From: Alteromonas sp.
GTDB taxonomy: Bacteria; Margulisbacteria; Marinamargulisbacteria; UBA6595
Direction: 5' to 3'
Length of the DNA stretch: 64,000 bases
NCBI GenBank assembly: GCA_964220215.1
Contig: CAXPTH010000003.1
Span: forward strand, 70,216 to 134,215
Positions 7,300-47,039 of this stretch are shown here, in pieces. Position 1 is the first letter of the stretch, and the number at the start of each line of letters is the position of its first letter. Position numbers and translations under genes: made by a program. Below the pieces are notes generated by a model. That model was given only the letters and a program-made list of their open reading frames with translations. It had not been told where the DNA came from and did no database searches.

Positions 7300-8394
7300 T
7301 TAAAGGGTATCCAAAACCGCTTGAATATCGGATTCAGCAACAGAAACAATTGTAACATCCCCTATTTTTGTGGGCAATACAAACCGCAATTGATCCCGAA
7401 TGGCTTTTTTATCCAAACGCATGGTATCCATAAGCCCTGATTTTGGGTCCGATTTCGGAATGTCTAGCTGTGTTGGCAACCCAATGCCCTGAATCAAAGA
7501 AAACAAGGCCTCATACACAGATTCTTGGCATAGCCCCAAGTGAATTGCAAGCCGTGTCTCAGCCAGCATGCCCAAGGCAATGGCTTCTCCGTGAAAATAA
7601 TGCTGATAATCCCCAGCTACTTCAATGGCATGCCCAATGGTATGCCCAAAATTTAAAATCATGCGTCGATTGGCTTCTTTTTCATCGTCATTAACCACCT
7701 GAACTTTATGCTGAGCCGACTGCTGCACAATTTGCATCCAGGGTTCGGGCCCAGACACAGCGCTGAGTGCCGATGTTTGGGTCAATAGTTGATTAAAGAA
7801 ATGAGCATCCATGATCATGCCATATTTAATGACTTCCGCTAAGCCCGATTGGATATGACGCTTGGGCAAGCTGCACAAGGTTTGCACATCACAATAGGTG
7901 ATTAACGGTTGATGAAAGGAACCAATTAAGTTTTTTCCCAAGGGATGATTAACCCCCGTTTTTCCACCAATTGCCGCATCCACTTGAGCCAGCAACGTGG
8001 TGGGAACTTGAATAACCGCAATACCACGCAAATAAATGGCCGCTACAAAGCCGGTTAAATCCCCAACAACACCCCCGCCCAAGGCAATGAGGGCATCGTG
8101 CCGATCCAATCGCCAGGTTAGTAACTGGGTGATTATTGCAGACACCTGATCCATTGATTTCGATGTTTCACCATCGGGAATACCAATGGTTTGCACATTA
8201 AACCCAACCGATTCACAGGATTTTGTAATGGCTTGACAATAGGAATCTGGAATCGTTGATTGTGTCACAATAACCAGACGACGACCTGAAATTTGATCTC
8301 GAATAACCGAACCAAGCTGAGACAAACACCCCCACCCTACATCCACACGGCTGTTGACTTGCTTCAATCGAATTGATGTTGTTTTAGTCATCAC
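7300..8394 (-). CDS. aroB: 3-dehydroquinate synthase
   Basis: 364 aa. Motifs GGGVVGDLTGFVAA, KTGVNHPLGKNLIG and NFGHTIGHAIE (metal ligands). Confidence 0.9.
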   Translation of the reverse strand: MMTKTTSIRLKQVNSRVDVGWGCLSQLGSVIRDQISGRRLVIVTQSTIPDSYCQAITKSCESVGFNVQTIGIPDGETSKSMDQVSAIITQLLTWRLDRHDALIALGGGVVGDLTGFVAAIYLRGIAVIQVPTTLLAQVDAAIGGKTGVNHPLGKNLIGSFHQPLITYCDVQTLCSLPKRHIQSGLAEVIKYGMIMDAHFFNQLLTQTSALSAVSGPEPWMQIVQQSAQHKVQVVNDDEKEANRRMILNFGHTIGHAIEVAGDYQHYFHGEAIALGMLAETRLAIHLGLCQESVYEALFSLIQGIGLPTQLDIPKSDPKSGLMDTMRLDKKAIRDQLRFVLPTKIGDVTIVSVAESDIQAVLDTL

Positions 8395-8436
8395 TACTGT
8401 TTAATCATAGCACAAACTGGTACACTGGTAGTTAGT

Positions 8437-9618
8437 ATGCTTCGAGTTTTTATTGGTTTAATCATTAGCACCGTTGCTTTTGGGGCGATTCATGTTCAAA
8501 CCGTATCGGTCAATGCGACTGAAAGCGTGTTTTTAGATTACAACAAAACCCAGATCTTGCAATCCAATTTATCCCTAATTTTTGAAAACGGCTTGGGCAA
8601 AGTCTCTGATGCATTCGAACCAACAGACAATGTCTCAGCTGTACAAAAATCAACATTTAACATCGCGATGGATGCCGCAAGAGGGGGCGCTGCCGAAGCG
8701 ACCACCAACCTTAAGGCTTATCCGTCAACGGCCAGTTACTACCCCACATATTCCAACTGCGATTATAAATGTTTAATCACTCGTTATTTTTATTTAGGGC
8801 TTTTGTCTGTTACTGGCTATAACGCAAATCGACAAGCAAAAACGATCGGTGAGTGGGAACCCCACACCCCTCAATTAATGCTGGCCATTGACCCCGATGC
8901 TACAGAATTATTAACAGGAACAGTCGATAATATTGTGATGCCTAAACAAGTGCCCAACGGTCTTTATATGCCCAAAGAAATCACGGCAAATACTCCAACC
9001 TTTAATGTTGCCCCAACACTGAATGCAACGGTGAGTCAAAATTTAGCCAGTCTAGGAACCATTAACGTGCCCTCATTCAATAAATACACAGCGGTATTTG
9101 ATGTTCATGTTATTGGGCATGAATTGGTTCCTACGAATCATGTGCTTTACGCCGCAAACACCCTGGCTCAGTGGTTGGATAATCAACGTGTCGGGACGCC
9201 CAATACATGGAAAACCGTTGTGAATCAACTCACTGCAGTCAGCGGCAGCGCCTTAATACTCGTGCCAAACGCCAGCACACAATCCCTTGCGACAATCAGT
9301 CTATATGCACCAAGGGTCTTGAACGGACCCAATCCATTTAACCCAGGCATCGGCCAAATAACCCGATTTCAATACACACTGAACAATGACTCCGATGTTG
9401 AGATGCATATTTACTCCTTATCCGGTACCAAAGTCTATGAGGCCCATCGTCAACGGGGTAACCGTGGCGGGGCTAAAGGATTTAATGGCGACATTACTTG
9501 GGATGGACGAAACAAAGACGGAAATACGGTGGCCAACGGCGTCTATGTGGCGTATTTTAAGTTTGCCAGCATTGATGGCACCGTGTTTAGTAAATGCAAA
9601 GTAGTGGTGTATAAATGA
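8437..9618 (+). CDS. secreted protein with C-terminal FlgD-Ig / T9SS-type sorting beta-sandwich domain; N-terminal domain unknown
   Basis: It has an N-terminal signal-like hydrophobic segment. The C-terminal ~90 aa (GPNPFNPGIGQITRFQYTLNNDSDVEMHIYSLSGTKVYE...ITWDGRNKDGNTVANGVYVAYFKF...KVVVYK) match, from memory, the NPFNP...IYD..G..V...WDG.n..G..v.sGvY pattern. Confidence 0.5.
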   Translation: MLRVFIGLIISTVAFGAIHVQTVSVNATESVFLDYNKTQILQSNLSLIFENGLGKVSDAFEPTDNVSAVQKSTFNIAMDAARGGAAEATTNLKAYPSTASYYPTYSNCDYKCLITRYFYLGLLSVTGYNANRQAKTIGEWEPHTPQLMLAIDPDATELLTGTVDNIVMPKQVPNGLYMPKEITANTPTFNVAPTLNATVSQNLASLGTINVPSFNKYTAVFDVHVIGHELVPTNHVLYAANTLAQWLDNQRVGTPNTWKTVVNQLTAVSGSALILVPNASTQSLATISLYAPRVLNGPNPFNPGIGQITRFQYTLNNDSDVEMHIYSLSGTKVYEAHRQRGNRGGAKGFNGDITWDGRNKDGNTVANGVYVAYFKFASIDGTVFSKCKVVVYK

Positions 9619-40534: not shown

Positions 40535-40669
40535 ATTAACCCCGGTTCATTCATCGATTACAACAATACGGACTAAAAAATTTTTTTGATTTTATTTTGT
40601 TTGAACTTAATATAAATATAAACGATAACTTTAAAAATGTCAAATTAAAATTATACTATTTGTATTTAA

Positions 40670-41614
40670 TTAAATTATTTTAGGTGTTATTACAAACACA
40701 ATATCGGTTTGATTGTTTCTACTTACTTTATGCCGAAACAATCGACCCAGTATCGGAATTCGGCCTAAAAACGGGACTCGCTTGGTAACCACTTGCTGAG
40801 CATTATCCAATAATCCAGCCATAATCAATGTTTCGTCGGGCTGCATCACAACCTGAGTATGCGCTTGTCGTTTCGCAATAATGGGCACTCGGCCACTTTG
40901 CATCGACTGCCAAAGTTTAACACTGGACATGCTTAAATCAATCGTTAGCATCAACGGATTGTTCTCTGAAATTAGGGGGTGAATTGAAAACTCAAGACCC
41001 GTCTGAACATAGTCAATGTGATTGATGGGTGTTTGCCCATTGTATTGGACAGTTTCATAGGGAATGCGATCCCCGACATGAAACTCAGCGGTTTGATTGT
41101 GCACACCCACAATGCTGGGATTGGCAACTAGGGTCGCTGTCCCATTTTGAATGCTCGCTTGAATCAGCCCAGCAATCGCATCCGCAGGTACGATTTGATT
41201 GTCCGTATAATTATAGTTGACCTGAATGCCATCCATTAGTGATGAAAAAATCGATTGATAGGTTTCAATATGTTGGGTGTTAATCTCAACAATCATCACA
41301 TGAAACACAACCTGTTTGGGGGGCTGATCAATTTGATTAATTAACGCTTGGATACGATCGTGTTCATCCGGGTTTGCTTGATACACAATCATCGTTTGAC
41401 TCGGGTCAATCGACAGCGGTACGTTCATCACCGAATCAATGGCTCGCTGAACCACCCCCACATTGGCATAGGCAATATCCACGCGATAAGTCTGTTTGCG
41501 TTGACTGGGCAGAGGCTCCACAAACAATTCATGAAAATAGGTTGTGTTTGCGTACCCAACACAGCCCAATATTAGCCACAGAATGCCACTGTATCGGACT
41601 ACACGGGTTCGCAT
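40670..41614 (-). CDS. short secretin-family outer-membrane channel protein
   Basis: 314 aa. It has a signal peptide, one secretin-N-like domain (ending IQALINQIDQPPKQVVFHVMIVEI) and a secretin core ending VTKRVPFLGRIPILGRLFRHKVSRNNQTDIVFVITPKII. Confidence 0.8.
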   Translation of the reverse strand: MRTRVVRYSGILWLILGCVGYANTTYFHELFVEPLPSQRKQTYRVDIAYANVGVVQRAIDSVMNVPLSIDPSQTMIVYQANPDEHDRIQALINQIDQPPKQVVFHVMIVEINTQHIETYQSIFSSLMDGIQVNYNYTDNQIVPADAIAGLIQASIQNGTATLVANPSIVGVHNQTAEFHVGDRIPYETVQYNGQTPINHIDYVQTGLEFSIHPLISENNPLMLTIDLSMSSVKLWQSMQSGRVPIIAKRQAHTQVVMQPDETLIMAGLLDNAQQVVTKRVPFLGRIPILGRLFRHKVSRNNQTDIVFVITPKII

Positions 41615-41877
41615 GTTACGGTTGCCTCATAGCCGGATTGCGTTAACTCAATGCGAATCGCTGGCTCAGGACATTGACTGTGAATCTGGTTGAGCTGCTG
41701 GTGGATCCCTTCCCATGTTTGAGCGCGCAGAAAAACAGACGGGTTTGTCTCGGACGATGCGAGTGATTGCAGCGCATTCAAAGAATTTTCCATACGCAGT
41801 ATTGAATCCCAAAGGCCCCACTTAACCACCGCTAAAATCAAGCATCCCCACCGAATATATCGAATTGCCGCCGTCAT
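41599..41877 (-). CDS. single-pass membrane protein, secretin-operon partner
   Basis: I chose the start at M9 of the track ORF because its ATG overlaps the upstream TGA (ATGA at 41877-41874). It has a TM segment (WGCLILAVVKWGLW) and a ~60-aa periplasmic tail, and overlaps the secretin start by 16 nt. Confidence 0.45.
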   Translation of the reverse strand: MTAAIRYIRWGCLILAVVKWGLWDSILRMENSLNALQSLASSETNPSVFLRAQTWEGIHQQLNQIHSQCPEPAIRIELTQSGYEATVTCEPV

Positions 41878-42491
41878 AAACGACCCGATACTTTTGCCCA
41901 TTTTTTACCCTGCCGAGTCGCATACTGGACATGGTCCGCATCGGATACAGTCAGCATTGCGTCGGAGTGGGTTAACACGCCAATGATACTATAGCTGGCA
42001 TCTGAATCAATGGCTAGGTAGGTGATATCAATGGGTTCTGCATTCCAACGATCCACCCAGTTTTGATACGCAATCGGATAGGAATAGCCCCGCTGAATCT
42101 GCGACTCGGATACACCCCTCGTTGTGTACACAAGCCACTGAGACCATCCCGTAAACAATGCGATACCCAGTACAGCTATACTGACTAAGATCCGCTTTAA
42201 TTTTGGCCGAACCCACTGTTGGCTGGGTGAAAAAAAACACCAGCCCAAGGGTGTCCAGACAAACCACTGTTCGCATTTAAAAAAATGAGAGATCGCGCGC
42301 ATTTTATGCGTGTTAAATTGGATTAAGCCACCCACCCGTTTGGCATAATCGCTGCCCACAAACACAAGGCCATTGGATTGTGTCCCGCTATTGTCTGTCG
42401 TTGAATCCAATTGATTTAAATAGGCATATAAAGACTGCTTGCTGGCATTTTTACCGTGGGACACCCATTTATTATGAATTAAACTACCCAT
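41874..42491 (-). CDS. bitopic membrane protein, first gene of the secretin operon
   Basis: 205 aa: a ~100-aa cytoplasmic part, one TM segment (ILVSIAVLGIALFTGWSQWLVY) and a ~80-aa periplasmic domain. I recognised no motif and saw no clear SD. Confidence 0.4.
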   Translation of the reverse strand: MGSLIHNKWVSHGKNASKQSLYAYLNQLDSTTDNSGTQSNGLVFVGSDYAKRVGGLIQFNTHKMRAISHFFKCEQWFVWTPLGWCFFSPSQQWVRPKLKRILVSIAVLGIALFTGWSQWLVYTTRGVSESQIQRGYSYPIAYQNWVDRWNAEPIDITYLAIDSDASYSIIGVLTHSDAMLTVSDADHVQYATRQGKKWAKVSGRL

Positions 42492-42609
42492 TTGAGATAT
42501 TTACTTAACCACAAAAAATAATTAACGTCAATATAATTATTAAAATTATTTAATTTAAATTTTTTGGGCTTATTAAAAATTACGCAGGCATGGTATTATT
42601 TTTAATATT

Positions 42610-44028
42610 ATGAATTTCCGATTCAGTTTGTGTATTCTTGGATTCAGCGTCTCTGTATGGGGTCAATCCCTATCCTTGGATGCGTATTTGGCGCACGTTG
42701 ATCAGCATAGCGCTTATTTAAAAAGCACCCAGCAATCGGTCGAACAACAGCGCGATCACGTAGAAACAGAACGCCGAAAAGCAGGCTGGGTTGTATCGGG
42801 TAAGTCGTACTGGGATCAGCAAGACCCCAACCCACCCAATCGCTTATTTATGTCCCAATCCAGAACCACGTACACCGGTATAGCCACCCAGTTACATAAA
42901 CCCATTTGGCAAACGGGCGGACAGATTGCCCTATCCCATGAATTGCGACGGATGGATCAATCCCAACCCCTCGTTTCTCTAGGCGGCTCCCAACAGCCCC
43001 TTCAACCCAATCCGTTGTACACCCGTTCGGCGGGTGTATCGTATCGGCAACCCCTATTGCAAAATCGATGGGGCACGCAATCTGAAATCCACTATAAATT
43101 GGCGAAAAATAACCAGCGCTATCAGGCCATTATCCAGGCTGAATCCGATGAATCCTTTCGATTGGAATACGTTTTACAGTATTTAACATGGGCCCATTAC
43201 TATACGATGACAACGATTATGCGTGATCGGCTCGCTGTTGCCGTTGCCCTGTATACTGAAAATCAGGCCAAATATACCAACAACTTAATTGAAACCTTAG
43301 ACATCTTGCAATCCCAGCACTATTTAAATCAGCAACAAACCCACGACAGTCAGGCAAAATTGTTGCTTGAAACGCATCAAAACAAGCTCAGTGCCGGACT
43401 CAATTACCCAGCGATACGGGTGAGCACACCAACCTTAAACTTATATCAAATTCCCAATTTAAATACAGAACCGATGCCCCCGTCGCTTCGAATTGTGGAT
43501 GCCCTCAAAACCCAACAAGCCGGCAATCACTTGATGTATGCGAGTATCATGGATCAAAAAAAGCCCCAGCTTGATCTTGTTGTGCAAGCCCAGTGGCATG
43601 ACCGTATTAATGAACACAATCGCATAACCGACTATGGACTCATGGACAAACAAGTGGTTGTGCAATTTTCAACGCCATTGGGCCTGAAACCCGTTGCTGC
43701 TGAGCTGGATGCCCTCAAGCATGACACGCAACGCATTCAACACACCATTGATCATGAATTGAATCAACTCATGGCGCACAAAGCGTTTTTGGAATCTGAG
43801 TACCAGCGCTTGCGTGTTCACTATGACTACCAAACAACGGCTGTTGCTTTACACACCCAAACCGTTAAAGAAGAAAATCGCTTGTATGAACAAGGCCGTC
43901 GCAACCTTACCTTTGTGTTGCAATCCCAAGATGCTGAGCATGCCGCTAAATTGGCCATGCTGGATACCGCCTATCAATTGCATTGCATTGTTGCTCAACA
44001 CAATGCCCTACTGGATCGATTGCAATGA
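42610..44028 (+). CDS. TolC-family outer-membrane efflux protein
   Basis: 472 aa with a signal peptide and two OEP-type repeat halves carrying long coiled-coil segments. Its stop overlaps the RND start (ATGA). Confidence 0.7.
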   Translation: MNFRFSLCILGFSVSVWGQSLSLDAYLAHVDQHSAYLKSTQQSVEQQRDHVETERRKAGWVVSGKSYWDQQDPNPPNRLFMSQSRTTYTGIATQLHKPIWQTGGQIALSHELRRMDQSQPLVSLGGSQQPLQPNPLYTRSAGVSYRQPLLQNRWGTQSEIHYKLAKNNQRYQAIIQAESDESFRLEYVLQYLTWAHYYTMTTIMRDRLAVAVALYTENQAKYTNNLIETLDILQSQHYLNQQQTHDSQAKLLLETHQNKLSAGLNYPAIRVSTPTLNLYQIPNLNTEPMPPSLRIVDALKTQQAGNHLMYASIMDQKKPQLDLVVQAQWHDRINEHNRITDYGLMDKQVVVQFSTPLGLKPVAAELDALKHDTQRIQHTIDHELNQLMAHKAFLESEYQRLRVHYDYQTTAVALHTQTVKEENRLYEQGRRNLTFVLQSQDAEHAAKLAMLDTAYQLHCIVAQHNALLDRLQ

Positions 44029-47000
44029 ACCGGTTTTTTAATTATTTTATCCAGGACCCACTCATTGGCAAAGTGATTACGGGGTCATTACTATTGCTGG
44101 GTATTTACGGGTTTAATACCGTCCCCATTAACATTCGGCCAAGCGTCGCATTTGATGAATTGGTGATTAATACCTACCATCCAGGGTATTCGGCTAAAGA
44201 TATCGAATTGCGCATTACCAATAAAATTGAAGATAAACTGGCGACTATTTCGGGCATTCAATACTATGAGTCTAGCAGTTCTGAAGGACGGTCCATGATT
44301 AAAGTGGTCTTGGAAGAAAAACTAAAAAACCCAAAAGAAGTCAAAGACAAATTGTATCGAGCCGTTGATAATGCCGAATTGCCTACAGAGCTTGAAAATC
44401 GACCCAGCATTCAAGATATCAATAGTGATGAAATTCCCGTTTATACCCTTGGCATTATTGGCGGCACAACCTATGCCGATCAGTTTTATTATGCCAAGCA
44501 CTTAAAAGACCAGCTGGAATCGCTGCCCGGCATTAGCCAAGCCGTTGCGGTGGGTTATTTCGAGGAAGAAGCCCAAGTTTTATTGGATTTAGAAGCGATG
44601 CGTACGTATCAATTATCCATGCACGATATTGAAGCAGCCTTTAAACGTCGGCACATTCGTGTATCCAGCGGCCCCATTGAGCGTCCGGATACCCAACAAG
44701 TTGTTTTAAATGCTGAGTTTGCCAATACATCAGCCCTAAACAACTTAATTATACGGTCCAATTTTAACCAAAAAACCGTTTATTTGCGGGATGTTGCCAC
44801 CGTGCGCATGGACTTTGAAAAACCAATTAGCTACACCCATATTAATGGCCAGCCCGGTATCTTATTGGATATCATAAAAAAAGAATCGGCTGAAATTTTA
44901 CCGACGGTTAAAGCCTTGCAGGCCTTTTTAGACCAACAAATTTTACCCAATAACTTATCCATTGTCTTGGTCAATGATATGTCGTACTTTTTAACGCGTC
45001 GGTTGTCTGTTTTGGTATCCAATGGCCTGATTGGCATGGCCTTTGTTTTTGTTGTTCTGAGTATTTTTTTGCGTGCCAATATTGCCGTATGGGTAGCAGC
45101 TGGGCTTCCGGTTGCTGTGTCGGGCATTTTATTTTTGCTGCCAATCGCGGGGCAAAGCATTAATGTTGTATCGTTAATTGGCATTATTTTAGTCATTGGG
45201 ATTATTGTGGATGATGGGATTATTGATGCCGATAGCGTTGTTCAGCAATTAGAAGCCGGTCATGATAAAAAAACGGCCGCACTTTTGGGTATTCAAACTG
45301 TTTTTGCGCCAGTCATTACCACGTTGATCACTACATTTTTAGCCTTTCTGCCCATGCTGTTTATGAGTGGAATCATGGGCAAATTTGTTTTTTGTATTCC
45401 ATTGGTTATTAGTTTTGCCTTGTTATTTAGCTTGGTTGAACTGTCAACAGCCCTGCCCACACATTTGGCCAATACCAGTGATCGATTTAAAAAGCCGATA
45501 CTCAGTATGGATCGTGCCCGAATGGCCTATCAACGTGCCCTGCATGCCTGCTTAAACCGGTATAAACTCATGAGTGTTGTATTTTTAATCAGCATTTTGG
45601 GCTTGGGTATTCTTTCAATACGCTATATAACATTTGAGCTGTTTCCAAAAGCATCCGCTGAATCCTTTATTGTTAATATTAAATACCCAAAAGGCACATC
45701 TCTAAAAAACAATCGAGACCAAGTGCGTGCTGTTGAATCGGTGTTGGCCACCATGCCCAAGCATGAATGGATTAGCTTTAAAACCTTTGTGGGCATGACC
45801 AATACCAATTCATACGATTTTGCCAATAAAGAAAATGAAACGGAAATCACGGTGTTTTTAACGCCAATTGCCCAGCGCACACGCAGCGCTGAAGCCATTA
45901 TTCAAGACTTAAAACCACAGGTACCCGATACGGTGTTTTTCCGTGTTGAATCGGGTGGCCCGCCGGTTGGCCGAGCCATTAGCGTTGAAATCATTCACCC
46001 AAATACATCCATTCGGACCGATATTACAAATTACGTCTACCAACTACTGGCCAATACACCAGGAGTTCGTGACTTATCACGGACGGATGATGGTTTGCGA
46101 AAAACCATTCAAATAACACCCAATATTGCGAAAGCCGCCCAGCTGGGGGTTTCTTTGGCAACCATTGCCCAAACGATCAATATGGCCTACACCGGTCAAA
46201 TTATTGGTGAGTTCAATCAAAACAACGATACCATCCCCATTCGATTGCAATTGGCCCCCAACGATCAAACCATTAGCGGCATTCAAGCGCTTGTTGTACC
46301 CAATGCCATGGGCAAACTAATCCCCCTAGCCCAACTGGTTTCGGTTGACAATGGGCCCATCACACCCAGTTATTATCACTACAATGGCGACCCAAAAACC
46401 AGTATTTATGGTGAAATCAATGAATCAGAAACAACCATTCAATCTGTTGTCAAACGCGTTGAAAACCAAATCGATACCACGCAGTGGCCCGGGGCCCAAG
46501 TGCTATTTACTGGCCAAAATGAAGATACCAATCGATCCATGAATGACTTATTCAACGTTTTTCTACTTACACTGGTTGGCATGTTTATTTTGTTAATTGT
46601 TTTATTGCGATCGATTCCCCAAACCCTCTTAGTTTTGACCTGTATTCCGTTTGGTCTTTTAAGTGCGTCTTTGGCATTTATTGCCCATGGTCAAGTGCTC
46701 AGTTTTATTGGGGTTATTGGCATGATTGGACTGTCTGGGGTCGTGGTGAATGATGCCTTGGTGATGATGCATCATTTAAACAAAACCAAGCCGTCGGGCT
46801 TGCCCCTCTCTGAGACAATTGCGCATGTGGCTAGCGGCTGCGCCACCCGGTTCCGACCGGTGTTATTAACATCCATGACCACCGTGTTTGGCCTATTGCC
46901 CTTGGCGTATGGCTTTGCCGGCAACGACCCGTATTTAGCCCCAATGGCACTAGCGATGGGTTGGGGGCTATTGGTTGCAACCCCCTTAATTTTGTTTGTA

Positions 47001-47039
47001 TTTCCGTGTTGGTACATGGTGGTGTGTGGCAGACGCTAA
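44025..47039 (+). CDS. RND efflux transporter, AcrB/AcrD/AcrF family
   Basis: About 1004 aa from MNRFFNYFIQDPLIG (ATG 44025). It has a 12-TM architecture with two large periplasmic loops and typical AcrB-family sequence throughout. Confidence 0.88.
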   Translation: MNRFFNYFIQDPLIGKVITGSLLLLGIYGFNTVPINIRPSVAFDELVINTYHPGYSAKDIELRITNKIEDKLATISGIQYYESSSSEGRSMIKVVLEEKLKNPKEVKDKLYRAVDNAELPTELENRPSIQDINSDEIPVYTLGIIGGTTYADQFYYAKHLKDQLESLPGISQAVAVGYFEEEAQVLLDLEAMRTYQLSMHDIEAAFKRRHIRVSSGPIERPDTQQVVLNAEFANTSALNNLIIRSNFNQKTVYLRDVATVRMDFEKPISYTHINGQPGILLDIIKKESAEILPTVKALQAFLDQQILPNNLSIVLVNDMSYFLTRRLSVLVSNGLIGMAFVFVVLSIFLRANIAVWVAAGLPVAVSGILFLLPIAGQSINVVSLIGIILVIGIIVDDGIIDADSVVQQLEAGHDKKTAALLGIQTVFAPVITTLITTFLAFLPMLFMSGIMGKFVFCIPLVISFALLFSLVELSTALPTHLANTSDRFKKPILSMDRARMAYQRALHACLNRYKLMSVVFLISILGLGILSIRYITFELFPKASAESFIVNIKYPKGTSLKNNRDQVRAVESVLATMPKHEWISFKTFVGMTNTNSYDFANKENETEITVFLTPIAQRTRSAEAIIQDLKPQVPDTVFFRVESGGPPVGRAISVEIIHPNTSIRTDITNYVYQLLANTPGVRDLSRTDDGLRKTIQITPNIAKAAQLGVSLATIAQTINMAYTGQIIGEFNQNNDTIPIRLQLAPNDQTISGIQALVVPNAMGKLIPLAQLVSVDNGPITPSYYHYNGDPKTSIYGEINESETTIQSVVKRVENQIDTTQWPGAQVLFTGQNEDTNRSMNDLFNVFLLTLVGMFILLIVLLRSIPQTLLVLTCIPFGLLSASLAFIAHGQVLSFIGVIGMIGLSGVVVNDALVMMHHLNKTKPSGLPLSETIAHVASGCATRFRPVLLTSMTTVFGLLPLAYGFAGNDPYLAPMALAMGWGLLVATPLILFVFPCWYMVVCGRR

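Follow-up and report, generated by a model that had tools for sequence, protein, structure and literature searches.

How is a secretin put to use when no secretion ATPase, platform protein or pilin gene lies in its neighbourhood? This question is raised by a short secretin gene (gene C) in the stretch of DNA analysed here, a window of 64,000 nucleotides (nt) that corresponds to C3:70216-134215 of a 1.19-Mb Marinamargulisbacteria genome, assembled in 29 contigs and 82% complete. Marinamargulisbacteria are an uncultured sister lineage of Cyanobacteria, and no paper on pili, secretins or competence in this lineage was found in the literature that we searched. Gene C is the last of three overlapping genes, the first two of which (genes A and B) code for small membrane proteins.

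An earlier reading of the same DNA, made from the letters alone (the original prediction), took the three genes for a possibly self-standing or novel secretin module without machinery. Our search of the window confirmed that it holds no secretion ATPase, platform protein or pilin gene. However, an assembly ATPase, a putative platform protein, pilins, ComEC and ComEA are encoded on other contigs, and the 'orphan' appearance of the secretin is explained by the location of these machine genes elsewhere in the genome. We consider it likely that A, B and the secretin together span the envelope as one module of a type IV filament (TFF) machine that is miniaturised and whose genes are dispersed. In the following, G000 denotes the window's own genome, G001 and G002 are relatives from the same genus, and L-numbers are loci of relatives.

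A short secretin and its two membrane partners

Three co-directional open reading frames (ORFs) on the minus strand follow one another in the order A-B-C, each overlapping the next. Gene A (41874-42491) codes for 205 amino acids (aa), gene B for 100 aa when read from its first ATG (41599-41901) or 92 aa from its second ATG (41599-41877), and gene C (40670-41614) for the secretin of 314 aa. The overlap of B and C is 16 nt long (41599-41614), and the ATG of B at 41877 overlaps the TGA stop of A as ATGA. The 92-aa form of B is favoured because the start of its ortholog in G001 corresponds to the second ATG and gives an overlap of 4 nt. These ORF coordinates bear out the translationally coupled three-gene unit, with its 16-nt and ATGA overlaps, that had been described from the letters.

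Gene C is a member of the secretin superfamily. Its residues 155-314 match the Pfam Secretin profile PF00263 over positions 3-168 of 169 (2.2e-38, 132 bits against a cut-off of 27.5). Ahead of this core, residues 45-101 match the N3-type Secretin_N profile with 27.0 bits, which is 1.2 below the cut-off of 28.2, and the precomputed Pfam annotation of the cluster to which gene C belongs includes PF03958. Secretins in the PDB align to residues 151-313 and the N3 domain of PilQ to residues 70-115. The N-terminus reads as a hydrophobic Sec signal peptide that ends in ...GYA before an N and is probably cut after ...GYA. A lipoprotein secretin was considered and rejected, because the candidate cysteine sits within the signal peptide's hydrophobic core and is not conserved in the alignment of relatives. 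No match to N0, STN, AMIN, BON or S-domain was found in Pfam, and N0, STN and AMIN did not appear even at E<1. The protein stops at the secretin core and is devoid of N0-N2, AMIN and S domain, whereas the long secretins of its relatives do carry STN/N0. These results are in agreement with the earlier description of a short secretin built from a signal peptide, a single N-domain (here of N3 type) and the conserved core.

Full-length membership of the PilQ or GspD families is not supported. The NCBIfam models for GspD (TIGR02517, 152 bits against a cut-off of 351), PilQ (TIGR02515, 120 against 284), MshL (93 bits), SctC and HofQ match the C-terminal part of gene C only and far under their cut-offs, the GspD and PilQ matches being confined to the C-terminal third. 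In the PDB search PilQ of P. aeruginosa (79 bits) and GspD (76 bits) were matched over the core and N3 only, and the phage protein pIV reached 40 bits. The family is rare outside the lineage, with about 14 clusters scoring far above the next-best matches, which are CpaC proteins at about 1e-20. When the single secretin protein was used to look for related loci, the two genomes of the same genus were the only ones returned. Like the short secretin, RcpA/CpaC of Tad systems (~430-460 aa) and phage pIV (~410-430 aa) have reduced N-terminal regions compared to GspD and PilQ. However, CpaC carries BON and T2SS-T3SS_pil_N domains and pIV keeps an N0 domain, while the secretin described here is shorter than both and consists of N3 and core only.

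Gene A encodes a protein with one hydrophobic helix at about residues 94-125. A itself has no Pfam or NCBIfam match, and the members of its alignment have no meaningful one; a profile search against PDB sequences likewise gave nothing meaningful, and a word-based homolog search returned near-identical proteins only. The A family counts 51 representatives among 1.84 billion proteins, and 47 A-family sequences of about 200-280 aa form the largest alignment that we compared with other profiles. In the AlphaFold2 model of A made with a family alignment, with a mean predicted local distance difference test (pLDDT) score of 73, a beta-rich cytoplasmic domain of low confidence (1-90) is followed by the transmembrane (TM) helix (94-125), a further helix (129-151) and a four-stranded sheet (154-204) with pLDDT of 85-95. 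The model suggests that A is a bitopic inner-membrane protein composed of a ~90-aa cytoplasmic N-domain, a single TM helix and a ~70-aa periplasmic C-domain.

Profile comparisons relate this periplasmic part of A to PilN. Alignment of A by hhalign to the PilM-PilN fusions of relatives gave E=0.02 with 15 sequences; with the 47 sequences, residues 141-193 aligned onto the Pfam-PilN segment with E=0.0016 and a probability of 16%. The A profile also matches a canonical PilMN fusion across the TM and PilN parts (8.7e-4). In a cassette from another class (L073, G075) the protein in the position of A matches Pfam PilN PF05137 with 23.9 bits against a gathering cut-off of 22.8, and the A profile finds this same protein at 1.7e-6. 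Because the hhalign, A-profile and G075 PilN matches link A to PilN, we treat A as a highly divergent, remote PilN-family protein of GspL-like topology, whose ~90-aa N-domain may replace PilM. This N-terminal domain has no PilM_2 match, and no signal was obtained when A was compared to PilO by hhalign.

Gene B encodes a protein with one hydrophobic helix at its N-terminus. Its AlphaFold2 model (mean pLDDT 85) contains a helix (2-44), a strand (47-52), a second helix (55-66) and two further strands (72-79 and 82-89), so that B is predicted to be a bitopic protein with an N-terminal TM segment continued by a long stalk helix and a small periplasmic beta-alpha-beta-beta domain. As for A, neither B (no match) nor the members of its alignment (none meaningful) could be assigned by Pfam or NCBIfam, and the PDB-sequence profile search was without meaningful match; a word-based search returned just 9 hypothetical proteins. 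No signal was seen between B and PilMN by hhalign. The place of B in the gene order suggests a PilO/GspM position, the agreement being one of position, size class and topology only, with no detectable homology; neither by sequence nor by fold does B match PilO (PF04350) or GspM (PF04612). The earlier statement that both partners stand outside any catalogued family therefore holds as far as Pfam and NCBIfam are concerned, and of its alternative, that the partners might match known assembly proteins, the part concerning A stands in the form of a remote PilN-family relationship while the part concerning B does not. Taken as a whole, the module appears to resemble PilN/PilO-PilQ or GspL/GspM-GspD assemblies, with a match to PilN that is remote only.

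Filament-machine genes elsewhere in the genome

Gene C is the sole secretin found by a genome-wide search of the 1.19-Mb genome, and the remaining parts of a filament machine are scattered over at least five loci. The assembly ATPase (C12:18032-19333, 433 aa) matches T2SSE at 4.5e-88 and carries a C-terminal tetracysteine motif. Its NCBIfam scores are 288 bits for GspE, 267 for PilB and 257 for ComGA (cut-off 300), the ComGA model being covered over its whole length. A flag for a TAG inside this match turned out to be merely the natural stop codon at the end of the ORF. The gene directly follows mreB on the same strand (G000:C12:16982-19333), and this adjacency is kept in all six genomes examined, which represent five families (loci L046-L050 included). 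At several mreB-ATPase loci the next gene, read by eye, is sua5/yrdC-like. The genome has one strong T2SSE match, a second one in an 899-aa ORF scoring below the cut-off, and therefore no PilT.

The putative, divergent platform protein (C7:14983-15873, 297 aa) is encoded after tatD. It was missed by the standard Pfam search of the genome and was found via its G001 ortholog (66% identity). Its own profile matches are weak only (T2SSF 18 bits, below the cut-off; GspF 29 bits; weak ComGB), and tblastn comparison with the ~330-aa platform proteins of relatives gave E values of 3e-9 and 5e-4 at ~20% identity. The platform protein of one such relative (G015) matches T2SSF with 93 bits and ComGB with 89 bits; the ComGB match of the relatives' platform runs from end to end (5-331 of 332), followed by HofC with 68 and GspF with 58 bits. 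At loci L038-L045 (for example L040:8067-12582) the relatives show a string of genes for a ~320-aa TM protein, a bactofilin-like protein, rsmI, tatD, the platform protein and a pilin, the genes before the platform having been named by eye. In this genus the pilin gene has been relocated to contig C28, its place after the platform gene being taken by gyrB and gyrA.

The major pilin gene on contig C28 (C28:6920-7330, 136 aa) has the motif KKG/FTLIELILTLTIIG, in which the slash marks the processing site, and an N_methyl match of 33 bits against a cut-off of 21.2. Its best NCBIfam model is GspG with 44.7 bits, below the family cut-off. Four minor-pilin-like genes are present at C16:18425-19908. 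The pilin and minor pilins are intact and have canonical G/F..LE processing motifs. ComEC (5e-47) and ComEA (TIGR00426, 65 bits against a cut-off of 53.1) are encoded as well. Canonical PilM, PilN and PilO were not found in the genome with profiles made from the PilM-PilN and PilO of relatives, and PilP was not found. The possibility raised with the original prediction, that machinery located elsewhere lacks a secretin of its own, thus largely agrees with the genome: there is one secretin and the parts are present, but they are dispersed and form no complete cluster, and no prepilin peptidase was found in the assembly.

One of the closest comparisons is with PilMNOPQ of the type IVa pilus (T4aP), including HofMNOPQ/ComABCDE. 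Both have a bitopic PilN-type protein, a second small bitopic protein and a secretin in this order; the periplasmic domain of A aligns to PilN, and among solved structures PilQ of P. aeruginosa is nearest to the secretin core and N3. In the clusters of relatives that are canonical, a PilM-PilN fusion, PilO, a small protein and a long secretin are encoded. In contrast, the system described here has no PilM and carries a ~90-aa domain of unknown fold fused in A, PilP was not found, B is not recognisably PilO, PilT is absent, and the ATPase, platform and pilin genes are unlinked. Its secretin is without AMIN/N0 and, at 314 aa, does not reach half the length of PilQ (481-731 aa in most relatives); in the tree, short secretins and PilQ-type secretins of the phylum fall into different groups.

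We propose a model in which the single GspE/PilB/ComGA-like ATPase would drive the ComGB/GspF-like platform protein, and the two would polymerise a short (pseudo)pilus from the one major pilin, primed by the four minor pilins. The ~90-aa cytoplasmic domain of A could substitute for PilM or for the cytoplasmic domain of GspL. As its PilO/GspM-position partner, B would form an inner-membrane stator together with A, and this stator may extend through the periplasm as far as the one N3 ring of the secretin, which has no N0, thereby aligning the filament with the outer-membrane pore. External DNA could then be taken in through the secretin and passed to ComEA and ComEC. The contacts of A, B and the secretin with one another, the contact of A with the ATPase, the formation of a filament and the nature of the substrate are all inferred. 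The parts list matches a non-retractile pseudopilus of competence or type II secretion system (T2SS) type.

Several observations weigh against assigning the three genes to such a machine. The window's own A is without a Pfam PilN match, and its hhalign probability is just 16%. Foldseek searches of the AlphaFold2 models against the PDB, which had been suggested earlier as a way to detect PilN, PilO, GspL or GspM folds, returned nothing at E<0.1 and none of these four folds for either A or B. This outcome is negative or, as run, uninformative, the full-length models with their long helices probably hampering the matching. B has no similarity to PilO (hhalign probability 0.9%). Pilus maturation requires a prepilin peptidase, and none was found in G000 by Pfam, a custom hidden Markov model or tblastn, nor was any Peptidase_A24 match obtained in a Pfam genome scan of the near-identical G002. 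G001 encodes a 147-aa A24 peptidase directly upstream of the minor-pilin cluster (L057:6691-7134), between this cluster and a gene for a thioredoxin-like lipoprotein. In G000 and G002 the syntenic site consists of an intergenic gap of ~85-100 bp (G000:C16:19896-19994), with no peptidase gene. The gene may be located in the ~18% of the genome that is not assembled; otherwise the pilins would be processed differently in this species.

Inheritance and upkeep of the cassette

Co-occurrence of the three genes in other genomes, which had been named earlier as a check, was found in the relatives and in a second class. Among the 41 genomes of the class that form our comparison set, roughly 33 by our own count encode a short secretin (open frame of ~370 aa or less) and 36 have any secretin match. 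A T2SSE-family ATPase is present in all 41, with a divergent class of ~420-520 aa recurring, and a T2SSF match in 37, with a recurring divergent platform class of ~315-360 aa. Many of these genomes also have a canonical PilB (~570 aa), a canonical PilC (~410 aa) and a long secretin (most 480-1000 aa), a set that this genus has lost. The order A-like, B-like and short secretin is kept in 13 of the 14 relatives' loci examined, although the flanking genes differ between loci. Within the class the A-like proteins are 198-278 aa long with a TM helix near residue 100, and the B-like proteins 95-146 aa with an N-terminal TM helix. At one locus (L033 in G006; 7844-9494) a 176-aa A-like gene is present and no B ORF was found before the secretin. 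Separately, stop codons were seen within the A-like frame at G029:C26:2414-3081. Parts of the cassette may be lost or degraded in some lineages such as G006 and G029.

A phylum-level scan with the A profile located the cassette at five loci of a second class, with A-like proteins of 196-308 aa, B-like proteins of 97-142 aa and short secretins of 307-323 aa; the size of the short-secretin family as a whole is 307-353 aa. Recurrence in the loci of relatives and in the second class shows that the arrangement is not due to chance. A tree built from secretin cores has a branch (support 93/97) that divides all short secretins from the long PilQ-type secretins of the phylum and the CpaC outgroup, and the CpaC sequences form a clade of their own (100/97). 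The tree largely separates the two classes as well, with weak support for the class clade (64/17).

A and B are fast-evolving: identity within the genus is ~41-42% for these two and 72% for the secretin. Pairwise ratios of nonsynonymous to synonymous substitution (dN/dS) against G002 are 0.23 for both A and B, and 0.13 for the secretin; the corresponding values against G001 are 0.25, 0.19 and 0.06, at saturated dS (above 2). We regard the cassette as functional because all three genes are under purifying selection. It might be supposed that the genes are a decaying, functionless remnant left after the loss of the canonical T4aP (PilB/PilC/PilMNOPQ/PilT) and of the peptidase, since the genus is without the canonical PilB/PilC/long-secretin set of many relatives, the peptidase is missing from the syntenic site and the genome is small (1.19 Mb). 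However, none of the three ORFs is disrupted in G000, G001 or G002, their omega stays at 0.06-0.25 even at dS above 2, and the ATPase, platform, pilin and minor-pilin genes are likewise intact. Pseudogenisation was rejected on dN/dS, and we consider such decay very improbable.

The same comparisons bear on the idea that the three genes form a secretin conduit of their own that works independently of a pilus, either a gated outer-membrane pore with two dedicated partners or something categorically new, and that needs no pilin processing in this species. Within the class the cassette never adjoins ATPase, platform or pilin genes, and only G027 has canonical pilB/pilC, four genes downstream. Purifying selection persists in two genomes (G000 and G002) in which no gene for a prepilin peptidase could be found, and the A and B families are missing from all curated libraries, which would fit such a conduit. 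Against it, the occurrence of the short secretin across the 41 genomes follows that of the divergent ATPase and platform classes, A is PilN-related and PilN proteins belong to filament machines, and the pilin and minor-pilin genes of this genome have stayed intact, along with their processing motifs. Moreover, with the genome only 82% complete the peptidase may simply be unassembled. An autonomous conduit is therefore improbable in our view, and a dispersed filament machine remains the preferred explanation.

The flanks of the operon were examined with respect to a mobile origin. As had been noted from the letters, both flanking spacers are AT-rich: the spacer between the secretin stop and rho (40535-40669) has a GC content of 0.200, and the divergent promoter region shared with a TolC-like gene (42492-42609) one of 0.178. 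These are the lowest values among the 21 intergenic gaps of at least 40 nt in the window (median 0.385). The latter spacer is the probable promoter of the A-B-secretin operon, with a predicted promoter-like site on the minus strand (42559-42530, TTTAAA-18-TATATT) that matches the consensus at merely 9 of 12 positions. In the spacer 40535-40669 a near-consensus predicted sigma-70 promoter (TTGACA-17-TATATT, 11 of 12 positions) faces rho at 40643-40615 on the minus strand, and a simple scan of this spacer revealed no terminator-like hairpin. Because of this near-consensus promoter upstream of rho, the spacer is probably the rho promoter region rather than a boundary of foreign DNA.

An export pore of the pIV type from a filamentous phage, or a Tad/CpaC island with AT-rich borders, could account for these low-GC spacers and for CpaC-type secretins being the next-best database matches outside the lineage. 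However, the GC content of the operon (0.457) equals that of the window (0.463), pIV scores 40 bits against 79 for PilQ, and CpaC lies in its separate clade (100/97). Inheritance of the cassette follows the phylum, and the tree reproduces the division into classes; the cassette lies among housekeeping genes, and no Zot/pI, TadA, TadB or integrase gene is found nearby. A mobile origin is hardly credible on this evidence. Divergently oriented next to the operon, at 42610-47039 on the plus strand, are the overlapping ORFs of a TolC-like outer-membrane factor and a resistance-nodulation-division (RND) pump, the TolC-RND pair of the original prediction; no adaptor gene is visible beside this pair.

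Candidate function and meaning for the lineage

DNA uptake appears to be the most likely job of the proposed filament machine, at a little short of an even chance; protein secretion is considerably less likely, and adhesion or another role accounts for the remainder. In four genomes from two families of another Margulisbacteria class (G058, G059, G063 and G068), comM/yifB (ChlI, Mg_chelatase and Mg_chelatase_C domains) directly precedes A on the same strand (L070:5143-8464, L071:4954-8269, L074:6509-9822 and L072:49-2504), and comM overlaps A in at least G058, G059 and G063. ComM is a transformation-specific branch-migration helicase of Gram-negative bacteria (PMC6158740, PMC12012524). The arrangement suggests a single operon that ties the pore module to transformation-specific recombination. 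At the loci examined in this genome and its class, comM is not beside the cassette. Apart from the comM adjacency, DNA uptake is favoured by the ComGB-like platform protein and by the retention of ComEA and ComEC in a 1.2-Mb genome, both of which are widespread genes. Counting against it, the scores of the ATPase, pilin and secretin with GspE, GspG and GspD equal or exceed those with competence models. Because the T2SS models score equally or better, the case for DNA uptake rests mainly on the comM adjacency in the other class, the ComGB-like platform and ComEA/ComEC.

The dispersed machine could alternatively be a minimal T2SS that exports folded proteins, in which A would correspond to a reduced GspL and B to GspM, the pilins to GspG and GspH-K, and the secretin to a GspD without N0-N2. 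The top NCBIfam models are GspD for the secretin (152), GspE for the ATPase (288) and GspG for the pilin (44.7 bits), and there is a single ATPase with no retraction ATPase (no PilT). The N-terminus of the major pilin is GspG-like, the four minor pilins would be like GspH-K, the topologies of A and B are GspL-like and GspM-like, and the PilO-position protein of a relative weakly matches T2SSM. However, every one of these scores is far under its equivalog cut-off, the genes are dispersed and do not form one gsp operon, no GspC-like protein is seen, and the secretin lacks the rings N0-N2 and the S domain, N0 being the usual docking domain of GspC. The platform protein is ComGB-like in length and best match, with 89 bits for ComGB against 58 for GspF in relatives, and the position of comM next to the cassette in four genomes, along with the presence of ComEA and ComEC, speaks for DNA rather than protein. 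We judge a minimal T2SS unlikely.

Similarity to the Com system of monoderms (ComGA, ComGB, ComGC-GG and ComC) is seen in the end-to-end match of the ~330-aa platform of relatives to ComGB, in the one ATPase that covers the ComGA model, in the presence of ComEA and ComEC, and in the linkage of the cassette to comM in other Margulisbacteria. Scores are, as above, under the equivalog cut-offs. Com of monoderms has no secretin and no PilN/PilO-type proteins, whereas the host here has an outer membrane (TolC, secretin) and both of these. It is doubtful, more so than a minimal T2SS, that the system is a diderm member or sister of the Com lineage with its outer-membrane secretin retained. On such a reading the cassette could contain the smallest secretin family yet seen (N3 and core, ~310-350 aa), coupled to the inner membrane by a PilN derivative that has no PilM and by a small partner of a novel kind, and the species of G000 and G002 might operate without a dedicated prepilin peptidase. 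Denise et al. infer that an ancestral secretin was lost at the origin of the monoderm Com clade (bioRxiv 10.1101/576694). If it is true that the ATPase and platform are Com-type, the present system would bear on this loss during the diderm-to-monoderm transition.

What we describe is a phylum-wide, apparently vertically inherited minimal secretin of ~290 mature residues, with one predicted N3 ring and a pore, accompanied by two dedicated partners. It would set a lower bound for a working secretin and alignment complex and may offer a compact target for structural studies. Standard profile searches miss the machine, since the platform protein, A and B are undetected by Pfam. An apparent 'orphan secretin' in a reduced genome can thus be read as a likely part of a fully dispersed type IV filament machine, and the genes presented here offer the first view, at the level of genes, of what is probably a DNA-uptake or secretion apparatus in Marinamargulisbacteria.

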